A model generated the notes under the pieces. That model was not told the origin of the DNA and searched no databases. It saw only the letters and a list, made by a program, of their open reading frames with translations. 64,000 bases of DNA, taken from an uncultured Candidatus Saccharibacteria bacterium (GTDB lineage: Bacteria > Patescibacteriota > Minisyncoccia > UBA6257 > UBA11618). This document shows positions 15,383 to 20,293 of the stretch, one piece after another; the stretch's first letter is position 1, and each line of letters begins with the position of its first letter. A program made the position numbers and the translations under genes. The stretch is taken from the NCBI GenBank assembly GCA_964432405.1, contig CAYSNH010000001.1, positions 497-64,496 on the forward strand. Direction: 5' to 3'.

Positions 15383-17236
15383 TTATAATTTTATATTAAA
15401 AGACTTCGCCCAAATTTGAAAAGAAACAATTGGCATAAATTTCTTCAAATCGACAGTTGAATAAGATGATTTATTTAAATATTGATCCTTAATATATTCA
15501 AAATCAAATAAATCATTAGTTTCCCTATAATAATCCTCTGATAAAATATCTCTCACCATTACACCAAAACGACCATTCATCCATTGACTCACTGGCGCCC
15601 TCCAACCAGTTTTCCGCTTATTTATTACATAGTCAGGCAATCTATTTTCATAAGCCCTCTTCATCATTATCTTAAGATTATGAGGAGCTATCTTTTCTCT
15701 AGAAGAAATACTATTAGCATAATTAATTATGTCAGAATCAAGTAACGGAAAACGCCCTTCCATTCCAAACCTCATGGTTATCTTGTCTGTTCTAATAAAT
15801 TCTTCATCTGCTAACCAAAAAAGGCGATCTAAATTAGCTAACTCATTCTCAATATCATCACCAGCCTCAACAAACATTGAGTCTAATAAATAATTTTTTA
15901 AATCAATTAAATCATAATTAAATAATTTAAAAGACTTGTTTTTAAATGGTAGGTGAGATTTATTAGTCAATTTATTAATATAAATCCACCTATCAAGTAA
16001 ATTGTTTAGCTCAAAATTTTGTAAAGCATTTTTTAACTTTATACTTTTATTTAAATTTTTAATTTTAAAAGCTGTATTAAGAATTGAAGCTGGGTATTTA
16101 TTATACAAATTATTTAATCTAGAAAATAAATATTTGGGATAACCTAGAAATAACTCATCTCCACCACTACCACTCAAAACTATAGTAACATCTTTACTAG
16201 CCTCTCTCGCTAATAGCCAATAGGCGGCCAGAGAGGGGTTGTAACGAGGCTCTTCTATTGATTTTACAACCTCTTCTGTCGCTTTTATAAAATTATCCTC
16301 ATCAATTAATAACTCACAATGATCTATCCCATAATCACTACTAAGTCTTTTGGCAATTCTCGCATCTTCATTAATAGCTTCATCATCAACATCAAATCTG
16401 GTTGTATATGATTTGCTAATATTACTTTTATTCTTCATTAACTCATAAAGAACCGCTGTTGAATCTAAACCTCCGCTCAAATAAATTCCGAAAGGTCTCA
16501 AGCCCATTGTGTGATCCAGGACTGATTTATTTATTTTCTCTCTTAAAACTTCTGGATCAAAGTTATTGACTGTCTTTTTCAACTGACCAAGCCAAGTCTT
16601 TGTTAATAAGCCATCTTTAAGATCTAACTCTATATACTGACCTGGACAAACCTTTTTAATGCCCTCTATTAAAGTTCTTTGACCGGGAACATATCCTAGC
16701 ATAAAGAAGGCATTTGCTGAGTCTTTATCCAGCCTTCTTGATACCTCATGAGTTAAAATACCTCGGATTTCTGAAGAAAAAATAATCTTTTTATTAAAAT
16801 GATGATAATAAAGAGGCTTAATGCCAGAAAAATCACGCGCTAAAAAAATCTTATTATTTTTTCTATCATAAAAAGCAAAAGCAAACATTCCATTTAATTT
16901 GGATATGAAACTAGGGCCTTCTTTTATAAGGCCCTGAAACAAAACCTCTGTATCGCAATCAGTATAAAATTTACTACCTAATTTTTCCAAATACCTTCTT
17001 AAAGAACGATAATTATATATCTCGCCATTATAAGTTAAAACATAATTATTATCCTCCGAAACAAATGGCTGCCTAGATTTTTTAGGTAATTCAGTAATAG
17101 CTAGCAAGTTATGACCAAAAGATATCTTATCATTAACAAAGTGACCTGTACCATCAGGTCCTCTATGATTAGTTGCTTCATTCATTTTTAACAACAATTC
17201 CTTGTTATTAAAATTAAATCCATTAATTGCGCACAT
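15383..17236 (-). CDS. asnB: Asparagine synthetase B-like glutamine amidotransferase
   Basis: MCAINGF Ntn-Cys start, a PP-loop SGGLDS and a full-length AsnB architecture. Confidence 0.8.
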   Translation of the reverse strand: MCAINGFNFNNKELLLKMNEATNHRGPDGTGHFVNDKISFGHNLLAITELPKKSRQPFVSEDNNYVLTYNGEIYNYRSLRRYLEKLGSKFYTDCDTEVLFQGLIKEGPSFISKLNGMFAFAFYDRKNNKIFLARDFSGIKPLYYHHFNKKIIFSSEIRGILTHEVSRRLDKDSANAFFMLGYVPGQRTLIEGIKKVCPGQYIELDLKDGLLTKTWLGQLKKTVNNFDPEVLREKINKSVLDHTMGLRPFGIYLSGGLDSTAVLYELMKNKSNISKSYTTRFDVDDEAINEDARIAKRLSSDYGIDHCELLIDEDNFIKATEEVVKSIEEPRYNPSLAAYWLLAREASKDVTIVLSGSGGDELFLGYPKYLFSRLNNLYNKYPASILNTAFKIKNLNKSIKLKNALQNFELNNLLDRWIYINKLTNKSHLPFKNKSFKLFNYDLIDLKNYLLDSMFVEAGDDIENELANLDRLFWLADEEFIRTDKITMRFGMEGRFPLLDSDIINYANSISSREKIAPHNLKIMMKRAYENRLPDYVINKRKTGWRAPVSQWMNGRFGVMVRDILSEDYYRETNDLFDFEYIKDQYLNKSSYSTVDLKKFMPIVSFQIWAKSFNIKL

Positions 17237-19328: not shown

Positions 19329-20293
19329 ATAATATGATTCTCTATAATGTCATGAAGATGAATAATGCTTCTTGGCTTATTATCACTCACAACAACCAAA
19401 GAGGTAATCTTATTCTCCTCCATAATTTCAATCGCTTTCTGCAAAGAATCGTTTTCATTAATAGTTATTGGTTGCTTAGTCATGGCCATAGTCACTCCGA
19501 CCTCTATTGAAAATTTATCTGATAGAATAAATCTTCTTATATCTCCATCAGTTAAAATGCCTAACAAAAATCCAGCCTTATTAACAACGCAAGTAACACC
19601 AAGACCTTTCTTAGTTATTTCCTGAAGAGCCTCGGCAAATGATTGTTGATCATGAACCAAGGGCAATCTGTCTTCTTCTTTAAGGATGTTTTTAATTAAA
19701 GTATTTTTTAAACCTAATTGTCCGCCTGGATGAAAATTATTAAAATCAGCTCTAGCAAATCCTCTCTGCTTACTAACAGCACTTGCTACAAGATAACCAA
19801 TTATTAAAGAAACCGTGGTGCTAGCCATAGGAGCAGTATCAAATGGAGAACCTTCATTATCAATTTTATAAATAATCTTATAATCAACCAATCGAGCCAA
19901 AGAAGAATCTTTATTACCAGCAATTAAAACGGTTTTTGTGCCTATTTTCTTAAAATGCTCTATTAATTTAATAAGCTCCTGGGTCTCACCACTGTTAGAA
20001 AGAGCCAGAATAGTATCATTACCATCAACAACTCCTAAATCACCGTGAAAAGCTTCTGTAGGGTGCAAAAAGACAGCTTTTATGCCAAGGCTATTAAAGG
20101 TAGCGGTCAATTTGTTAGCAATATGACCCGACTTACCCAGCCCAGAAAACACCACCTTGCCATCACATGACTTAATCAGCTCCACAATCTCACAAAAATT
20201 GTCATCTAAAACATCTTCCAAAGAAGAGCCGGCTATCAAAATGTGACTTAATGTTTCCTGACTAATATTAATTATCTCCTGTCGTTTTTCCAT
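19325..20293 (-). CDS. kpsF: Arabinose-5-phosphate isomerase (KpsF/GutQ/KdsD; SIS + tandem CBS domains)
   Basis: SIS motif VVFSGLGKSGHIANK…SNSGET, followed by two CBS domains at the C-terminus. Confidence 0.8.
   Translation of the reverse strand: MEKRQEIINISQETLSHILIAGSSLEDVLDDNFCEIVELIKSCDGKVVFSGLGKSGHIANKLTATFNSLGIKAVFLHPTEAFHGDLGVVDGNDTILALSNSGETQELIKLIEHFKKIGTKTVLIAGNKDSSLARLVDYKIIYKIDNEGSPFDTAPMASTTVSLIIGYLVASAVSKQRGFARADFNNFHPGGQLGLKNTLIKNILKEEDRLPLVHDQQSFAEALQEITKKGLGVTCVVNKAGFLLGILTDGDIRRFILSDKFSIEVGVTMAMTKQPITINENDSLQKAIEIMEENKITSLVVVSDNKPRSIIHLHDIIENHII

Follow-up and report, generated by a model that had tools for sequence, protein, structure and literature searches.

A predicted GT-B glycosyltransferase domain fused to CMP-Kdo synthetase as a candidate Kdo transferase in a surface-glycan island of a Candidatus Saccharibacteria bacterium

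We analyzed a 64,000-nucleotide stretch (the window) of contig CAYSNH010000001.1 from an uncultured Candidatus Saccharibacteria bacterium, in which a kpsF gene is directly followed by a gene whose 701-amino-acid (aa) product joins an uncharacterized N-terminal domain (the N-domain) to KdsB, the synthetase of CMP-Kdo (cytidine monophosphate-activated 3-deoxy-D-manno-oct-2-ulosonate). The analysis establishes the identities of KpsF and KdsB, a modeled GT-B fold for the N-domain, the existence of a protein family around it, and the synteny of that family with Kdo genes. We favor, with some reserve, a reading in which the N-domain transfers Kdo, is anchored in the membrane, and represents a new GT-B family; its fusion to KdsB would let the unstable CMP-Kdo be consumed at the site of its synthesis. 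The features concerned are the following.

19325..20293, minus strand: kpsF, 322 aa, first gene of the operon; SIS and CBS domains, KpsF/GutQ-family arabinose-5-phosphate isomerase
17223..19328, minus strand: GT-B::KdsB fusion gene, 701 aa; uncharacterized GT-B domain and KdsB
17949..19328, minus strand: N-domain (residues 1-460); GT-B fold in the model, predicted Kdo transferase
19059..19145, minus strand: hydrophobic helix (about residues 62-90) just ahead of the first Rossmann strand; probable membrane anchor
17226..17942, minus strand: KdsB domain (residues 463-701), CMP-Kdo synthetase; IPARxxSTRLxxK, SGTDR, QGDEP and GIDTxxDL motifs

The initial annotation, made from the letters alone, had placed a KpsF with SIS and CBS domains beside a KdsB-like domain recognized by the strings SGTDR and NIQGDEP, and both assignments were borne out. 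The two minus-strand open reading frames (ORFs) overlap by 4 nt, from the kpsF stop to the fusion-gene start. The 322-aa protein matched PF01380 (SIS) and two stretches of PF00571 (CBS), scored 264 bits against TIGR00393 kpsF (cut-off 203.7), and was 36% identical to KdsD of Escherichia coli. It remained below the equivalog cut-offs of KdsD (251 vs 505) and GutQ (229 vs 481), and is placed, at family level only, as a KpsF-type arabinose-5-phosphate isomerase by its profile matches. Residues 463-691 of the 701-aa protein passed the cut-offs of NF003952 (259 bits, cut-off 193), NF003950 (236 bits, cut-off 234), and TIGR00466 kdsB (189 bits, cut-off 155), whereas PseF scored 53 bits (cut-off 205.7) and the NCBIfam scan gave no NeuA match. 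KdsB is defined by an N-terminal PAR..S.R...K loop, SGT[DE]R, QGDEP, and a C-terminal DT..DL; the translation reads VIPARLHSTRLSKK, SGTDR, NIQGDEP, and GIDTERDL. Judged by profiles and motifs, these residues are a genuine KdsB and not NeuA or PseF, which clears the concern, voiced with the initial annotation, that the domain might lie closer to NeuA or another cytidylyltransferase.

Intact orthologous fusions of 698-701 aa were found at 98%, 74%, and 69% identity (P0001, P0003, P0004) in the same island in independent ENA, Logan, and JGI metagenomes, indicating that the fusion is not an accident of ORF calling. In an 84% relative (L040), a deletion of about 58 nt lies exactly at the GT-B/KdsB junction (2370..2470 of that locus; compare window 17900..17990). 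It takes out the PAR..S.R loop of KdsB (PKVIGVIPARLHSTRLSKK) and splits the ORF, leaving a GT-B protein of 465 aa and a KdsB truncated at its N terminus, which reflects either natural inactivation or an assembly error. The nearest non-fused relative (P0005, 38% identity; locus L044) has separate kpsF, N-domain, and kdsB genes in the fusion order, and its N-domain and kdsB genes overlap by 4 nt (stop/start), so that losing one stop codon would yield the fusion. The same three genes are separate and in the same order in L005. Among the 150 representative clusters of the family that were listed, one alone is a fusion.

Residues 1-460 had no match in Pfam, NCBIfam, or PDB sequences; the initial annotation had called this domain unknown, and its length is about 460 rather than 440 aa. 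A word-indexed search of 5.8 billion proteins found just 10 relatives. With HMMER, a profile searched against 1.84 billion representatives reached 1912 proteins at E<1e-3, 363 of them at E<1e-30. On profile similarity, the N-domain belongs to a large uncharacterized family without a Pfam or NCBIfam model, the members of which are nearly all standalone proteins of about 485-490 aa. When 100 members were scanned (the sample behind all counts out of 100 below), no Pfam or NCBIfam assignment emerged, and a profile of 46 members searched against PDB sequences gave chance matches to ribosomal protein uL23 only. PF13439 (GT4 N-terminal domain) was the most frequent weak Pfam match (7/100, best E 8.7e-7). 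Fainter matches were to the BFO_1060 family of Tannerella forsythia CMP-pseudaminic/legionaminic acid transferases (3/100, best E 2.3e-4), to PF04464 (TagF; 2/100, best E 0.026), and, in one member each, to PF07388 (polysialyltransferase), KpsS (NCBIfam, E 0.025), and PseG. Apart from PF13439, the recurrent faint signals come from GT-B families for CMP-sugars or CDP-glycerol (BFO_1060, KpsS, TagF, and polysialyltransferase; CDP, cytidine diphosphate) and speak for the Kdo-transferase reading. We collected 31 loci of the family from GTDB species representatives, of which 22 are from Patescibacteria (Saccharibacteria, Parcubacteria/Paceibacteria, Kaiserbacteria, and others) and six from metagenome-assembled genomes (MAGs) labeled Gammaproteobacteria, with one each from Bdellovibrionota, Archaeoglobus, and an unclassified host. 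At least one of the MAGs labeled Gammaproteobacteria is closely syntenic with Paceibacter loci, making its label doubtful. Searches of the literature on Kdo in Patescibacteria and on Kdo transferases in Wzx-type clusters yielded no description of the N-domain family.

The AlphaFold2 model of the N-domain (predicted local distance difference test, pLDDT, 83.6; predicted template modeling score, pTM, 0.81) comprises an N-terminal helical segment, a long hydrophobic helix (62-85), two Rossmann-like domains, and C-terminal helices. The first Rossmann-like domain has seven strands and a long inserted helix (161-195), and the second has six strands (302-416); the strands are parallel and alternate with helices. 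Foldseek against the PDB returned canonical GT-B proteins at probability 1.00 and E values of 4e-10 to 1e-7, including UDP-GlcNAc 2-epimerases, MurG, GT1 antibiotic glycosyltransferases, GT4 enzymes, BshA, GlgM, and a lipopolysaccharide (LPS) glycosyltransferase. The C-terminal half modeled alone (pLDDT 86.5) matched the same kinds of protein, as well as SenB, WaaG, TarM, and OGT, with E values of 1.6e-5 to 4e-4. UDP-GlcNAc 2-epimerases and NeuC were the top matches for both the whole domain and this half. As modeled, the N-domain has a canonical two-Rossmann GT-B fold.

Across 100-150 members, D96, D101, R103, E120, H123, R131, R133, D204, D205, and R207 are conserved in the N-terminal half, followed by Q227, H228, G229, W257, W261, and G283, and the C-terminal half conserves L304, E308, R336, D338, Q344, G378, S381, T382, and L384. 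These residues form the motifs D204-D205-x-R207, Q227-H228-G229, and G378-x-x-S381-T382. In both halves, nearly all of them sit right after predicted beta-strands, a position that in the modeled GT-B fold is the side facing the cleft. The family also has a hydrophobic segment at about residues 70-90. The best 19-residue Kyte-Doolittle window within the first 150 or so residues of 100 members starts at about residue 74, with a median of 2.19, and reaches the threshold of 1.6 in 89% of members; the segment of the window's own protein scores 1.59, marginally under the threshold. This conserved helix is probably a membrane anchor.

Of all the evidence, the genomic context of the family is the strongest. 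Within 10 kb of the N-domain gene, kpsF was found in 17 of the 31 loci, kdsA or a gene resembling 3-deoxy-D-arabino-heptulosonate 7-phosphate synthase (DAHPS) in seven, and at least one of kpsF, kdsB, and kdsA in 23. Two loci (L017 and L019) carry kdsA-kdsB-kdsC and the N-domain gene contiguously on one strand. In two others (L014 and L023), a histidine-phosphatase gene precedes kpsF, kdsA, and the N-domain gene, and kdsB lies upstream, as an annotated ORF in L014 but only as a tblastn match in L023; in L029 the order is kpsF, N-domain gene, kdsA. Furthermore, kpsF lies directly upstream in all five additional metagenome contigs, and 7 of the 10 adjacent cytidylyltransferases tested pass the KdsB cut-offs of NCBIfam. 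A search of the window and of 36 loci (L001-L036) found no WaaA homologue, which leaves the role of Kdo transferase otherwise unfilled. Since the family sits with genes of the Kdo pathway across many lineages, the most economical reading is that it connects CMP-Kdo synthesis with transfer; the initial annotation had suggested such a link in case the N-domain is a KpsC/KpsS-like beta-Kdo transferase or a modification enzyme, and the KpsC/KpsS-like idea is not supported.

A recurrent core order in the Candidate Phyla Radiation (CPR) starts with a GT8-like gene on the opposite strand, an optional asnB, kpsF, the N-domain gene, and a methyltransferase gene, and continues with an optional p294, wzx on the opposite strand, a Wzy_C+TPR membrane protein gene, and secA. 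We propose tentatively that the N-domain founds a new Kdo-transferase family within a conserved Kdo-surface-glycan module of Patescibacteria (CPR), composed of the N-domain, KpsF, the GT8-like enzyme, the methyltransferase, Wzx, and the Wzy_C/TPR protein, that Kdo would have a widespread LPS-independent role there, and that the marine lineage of this window fused the N-domain to KdsB to capture the unstable CMP-Kdo. Among candidates for a further Kdo-transferase family, the N-domain family is the best available.

For the window, we infer a scheme covering the donor (CMP-Kdo), the acceptor, membrane anchoring, and the channeling of the intermediate. Within a Wzx-dependent surface-glycan island, the region would provide for the supply and transfer of Kdo: KpsF would supply arabinose-5-phosphate, KdsA and KdsC activities would come from elsewhere in the genome, as for the E. 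coli kps loci, and the C-terminal KdsB domain would form CMP-Kdo. Anchored by its hydrophobic helix, the GT-B domain would then take Kdo, or a close derivative of it, from CMP-Kdo and pass it to a lipid-linked glycan at the cytoplasmic face of the membrane, and Wzx would flip the product. By analogy with other GT-B enzymes, R336 and the G378-x-x-S-T loop are likely binders of the CMP phosphate, and D204/D205 and H228 are candidates for acceptor activation. CMP-Kdo is unstable and is generated in situ for assays (PMC12887879), which gives a clear rationale for fusing a transferase to the synthetase.

The initial annotation had noted that no KdsA or KdsC lies in the window, and we arrived at the same result: neither KdsA, KdsC, and WaaA of E. 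coli nor a DAHPS-like KdsA taken from a related locus had a tblastn match below E = 0.26 in the 64 kb. The E. coli KdsA query was validated by matches of 43-46% identity to kdsA genes at other loci. Group 2 capsule loci of E. coli have kpsF and kpsU alone, without kdsA or kdsC, so this absence is not odd.

The transferase part of the initial proposal is consistent with the GT-B fold of the models and the Foldseek matches, whereas its KpsC/KpsS-like part found no support. PF05159 (Capsule_synth) matched 0/100 members at E values up to 10, and hhalign of the family profile with three PF05159-positive proteins gave a probability of 0.5%. Retaining Kdo transferases are defined by HP and QXXXD motifs (PMC12887879); neither was found in the C-terminal half across the 100-150 members, and no His is conserved there. 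The N-domain also does not show the reduced or modified GT-B architecture that would place it closest to WbbB, KpsC, or KrkA. No KpsC, WbbB, KrkA, WaaA, TagF, or sialyltransferase chain appeared among the top 50 Foldseek matches of the whole domain or the C-terminal half. For WaaA, PF04413 matched 0/100 members and hhalign with the E. coli protein gave 0.2%, a single-sequence comparison of limited sensitivity. E. coli WaaA, WaaG, and WaaQ, each used as a single sequence, all stayed below 0.5%; the non-significant WaaG alignment stays in register through the donor-binding helix. Given that neither GT107, nor the motifs of GT99/GT140, nor WaaA was matched by sequence or profile, the N-domain falls in no known Kdo-transferase family. 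Separately, motifs of the neighboring PF05159-type proteins of three related loci (cluster c27: YVPLHxQPE, VKEHP, GRAALE) had seemed, by eye, to parallel the N-domain motifs LIPFE, FKARP, and GTYSTLLYE, and this KpsC/KpsS-like reading was dropped in light of the hhalign result.

Several observations weigh against the Kdo-transferase reading. One is that the N-domain resembles no known Kdo transferase significantly in sequence or profile, with low hhalign probabilities for PF05159 proteins and WaaA; another is that kdsA and kdsC are missing from the window. The structural neighbors are enzymes of uridine diphosphate (UDP) or thymidine diphosphate (TDP) sugars and 2-epimerases, with no CMP-sugar transferase in the top 50. 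Other glycosyltransferases (GT4, GT8-like, and GT9) share the clusters. A KdsB-type gene occurs within 10 kb in just 12 of the 31 genome loci, and eight loci have none of the three Kdo genes nearby. In addition, a non-KdsB CTP_transf_3 enzyme replaces kpsF/kdsB in three loci (L004, L028, and L018, the last from the Archaeoglobus MAG), where the family members (494-534 aa) accompany a haloacid dehalogenase (HAD) phosphatase, a 2-hydroxyacid dehydrogenase, and an epimerase. The family may therefore vary in donor specificity and use more than one CMP-activated donor.

Some of these points would suit a GT-B transferase that uses an ordinary sugar of UDP, guanosine diphosphate (GDP), or TDP just before or after Kdo addition, for example by glycosylating Kdo. 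The KdsB fusion would then only bring two steps of one glycan pathway together, and the finding would come down to an unusual fusion of domains within a glycan island that is otherwise ordinary. The nearest structures are indeed UDP/TDP-sugar enzymes of GT1, GT4, and GT28, and the prominence of PF13439 among the weak Pfam matches and the register of the WaaG alignment point the same way. However, this explanation leaves the loci without a candidate Kdo transferase, given the lack of WaaA homologues. PF05159-type proteins are confined to L008, L022, and L030, where a protein of about 485 aa (e.g., L022 5671..7140) is encoded next to DegT, an epimerase, and a second, non-KdsB cytidylyltransferase; these genes probably belong to a separate branch for nonulosonic acids that has a transferase of its own. 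The tight order of kpsF, N-domain gene, and kdsB and the fusion itself also point to a common substrate, and family members always accompany some CMP-forming cytidylyltransferase. We regard an ordinary nucleotide-sugar donor as unlikely.

Still less likely is a non-transferase GT-B enzyme resembling a 2-epimerase or hydrolase, comparable to NeuC in sialic acid synthesis, which would act on a nucleotide sugar or a Kdo precursor and might fill a missing pathway step. The ranking of UDP-GlcNAc 2-epimerases and NeuC at the top of both Foldseek searches fits this idea, as does the window without kdsA or kdsC. Conversely, PF02350 (Epimerase_2) matched no member among the 25 Pfam families listed of 53, the conserved hydrophobic anchor helix is atypical of soluble epimerases, and L017 and L019 keep the N-domain gene although they hold complete kdsA-kdsB-kdsC sets. 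To our knowledge, neither phosphoenolpyruvate condensation nor phosphatase chemistry is known in the GT-B fold. The specific proposal that the N-domain replaces KdsA or KdsC was rejected, as loci with full sets retain the gene and no such chemistry is known for the fold. Finally, we give very little credence to a phosphotransferase of the TagF/TagB kind that would use a CDP- or CMP-activated substrate to build a teichoic-acid-like polymer with phosphodiester linkages. In its favor, most hosts belong to the Patescibacteria, cells without an outer membrane, and there are the faint matches to PF04464 and to the TagB-like BFO_1060 family (PMC5420450). These matches are far under any cut-off, however, the top 50 Foldseek matches include no TagF structure, and the fused cytidylyltransferase is of KdsB type, the product of which is a CMP-ketoacid rather than a CDP-alditol.

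The genes around kpsF and the fusion gene are as follows.

15383..17236, minus strand: AsnB-type glutamine amidotransferase, 617 aa
14474..15358, minus strand: 294-aa protein with a weak 2-oxoglutarate (2OG)-Fe(II) oxygenase signal
12369..14477, minus strand: GFO/IDH/MocA oxidoreductase::D-2-hydroxyacid dehydrogenase fusion, 702 aa, last operon gene
20397..21251, plus strand: GT8-like glycosyltransferase, 284 aa, divergent from kpsF
11086..12363, plus strand: Wzx-type flippase (Polysacc_synt), 425 aa, convergent with the operon

The genes from kpsF to the GFO/IDH/MocA::2-hydroxyacid-dehydrogenase fusion (kpsF, the fusion gene, asnB, the 294-aa gene, and the 702-aa fusion gene) form a tightly packed five-gene run on the minus strand, in which the end of the GT-B::KdsB gene overlaps the start of asnB by 14 nt and the 294-aa gene overlaps the 702-aa fusion gene by 4 nt. 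AsnB genes accompany the module in many loci. At this position, asnB is absent in the 98% (L001, L002) and 74% (L041) relatives, making it a strain-specific insert between the fusion gene and the 294-aa gene. A second AsnB-type amidotransferase is encoded at 23603..25423 (minus strand), and the first 20 residues of the two proteins are identical (MCAINGFNFNNKELLLKMNE). Homologues of the 294-aa protein come after the N-domain gene in five loci (L005, L010, L015, L024, and L027). A KdoO-like identity for this protein was considered and rejected: the 2OG-Fe(II) signal is weak (E 0.0025, below the cut-off) and PF11004 did not match. Separate-gene homologues of the 702-aa fusion adjoin N-domain genes in L004, L024, and L027, and this protein possibly modifies the sugar; taken together, AsnB, the putative 294-aa oxygenase, and the 702-aa fusion may modify the sugar or the glycan. 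The GT8-like protein is the best-conserved partner of the module, at 47-61% identity in 18 of the 31 distant genome loci, whereas the GT-B domain shows just 25-34% identity across the same 18. It has a DxD motif, barely exceeds the Pfam GT8 cut-off, and has no NCBIfam or PDB match; something keeps it unusually constant. A Wzx homologue is near the N-domain gene in 24 of 35 loci.

Further glycan genes occur in the island. Two adjacent GT4 genes (21205..22398 and 22453..23586, both minus strand) encode an identical C-terminal stretch of about 108 aa (FKRCNVFALTSRY...IKIYRSV) with differing N-terminal halves, which points to recent duplication or gene conversion; L041 has only one gene at this position. 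A standalone sulfotransferase (4963..5778, plus strand), a double GT4 protein of 758 aa (25426..27702, minus strand), and a GT4::sulfotransferase fusion of 673 aa (29531..31552, minus strand) are also present, along with a TylF-type methyltransferase, a polysaccharide deacetylase, and a GtrA-like protein. Together, these genes imply a sulfated, heavily decorated glycan. Outside these genes, a type IV pilus-like set (44606..53656, minus strand; PilB/T2SSE ATPase, PilC/T2SSF, two PilM-like proteins, and several small ORFs) separates the 16S rRNA gene from hisS, with ftsA and ftsZ just past hisS, followed by a class II ribonucleotide reductase. The 16S rRNA gene is complete (54183..55669, minus strand; Rfam 1420 bits) and solitary: the 64 kb contain neither a 23S gene nor a tRNA. 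It deviates at the 515F, EUB338, and 806R sites, and its 3' end (...GUAGAACAAUUAAUUA, vs ...GGAUCACCUCCUUA in E. coli) has no CCUCC anti-Shine-Dalgarno. GGAG, GAGG, or AGGA occurs at -22 to -5 in just 5 of 54 ORFs, against a 12% background. These features suggest a CPR-like organism without Shine-Dalgarno pairing.

The arrangement resembles kpsF-kpsU-kpsC-kpsS of E. coli (region 1/3; KpsC and KpsS are the GT107 beta-Kdo transferases), where an extra arabinose-5-phosphate isomerase and CMP-Kdo synthetase (KpsU, a KdsB paralogue) likewise accompany transferase genes. The module logic of the group 2 capsule is the same, with kdsA and kdsC left to housekeeping copies. In contrast to KpsC/KpsS, the N-domain lacks PF05159 and the HP and QXXXD motifs and is modeled with a canonical instead of a reduced GT-B fold; moreover, the synthetase and the putative transferase are one polypeptide here, and export appears to be Wzx-type rather than dependent on an ABC transporter. 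We know of no earlier natural fusion of a CMP-Kdo synthetase with its presumed transferase, although the literature was not searched specifically for one. If the reading is true, the protein would be a self-sufficient enzyme for glycoengineering, as CMP-Kdo is too unstable to be supplied directly.

GT30 is the classical lipid A Kdo transferase. This enzyme (WaaA/KdtA) is a canonical GT-B protein that uses CMP-Kdo and has an N-terminal hydrophobic segment at the membrane, much as we propose for the N-domain. In WaaA, an Arg of the C-terminal domain and a small-residue loop are the expected CMP-phosphate binders, and by analogy R336 and the Gly/Ser/Thr loop may be their counterparts. However, the N-domain has no detectable similarity to WaaA by PF04413 or hhalign, and the setting differs, as the loci here are without lipid A genes and most hosts are without an outer membrane. 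Patescibacteria have neither an outer membrane nor LPS, and the concentration of the family in this group, beside complete kdsA-kdsB-kdsC operons, suggests that Kdo occurs in envelopes without LPS.

BFO_1060/Tanf_01245 of T. forsythia are TagB-like GT-B enzymes of a Wzx-type protein O-glycan pathway, in which they use CMP-activated ulosonic acids (PMC5420450), and their family gives a recurrent faint signal with the N-domain family (3/100 members). N-domain scores are about 20 bits against a family cut-off of 200 bits, and the pair of a D/E-D/E-G and an HP motif is not reproduced: DD-x-R is present, but the C-terminal half has no conserved His. Two families of retaining Kdo transferases, GT99 (WbbB) and GT140 (KrkA), and GT118, which transfers Pse, build glycans with CMP-ulosonic acids and were recognized only recently owing to their negligible mutual similarity; GT99 and GT107 are discussed, and GT140 is added, in a recent article (Journal of Biological Chemistry 2026; PMC12887879). 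The N-domain is like them in being a proposed enzyme of this kind with negligible sequence similarity. Kdo transferases are thus known from several unrelated-looking families, each of which clarified how LPS, capsule, or O-antigen is built, and the N-domain, if it is a Kdo transferase, would represent a further solution on a canonical GT-B fold.

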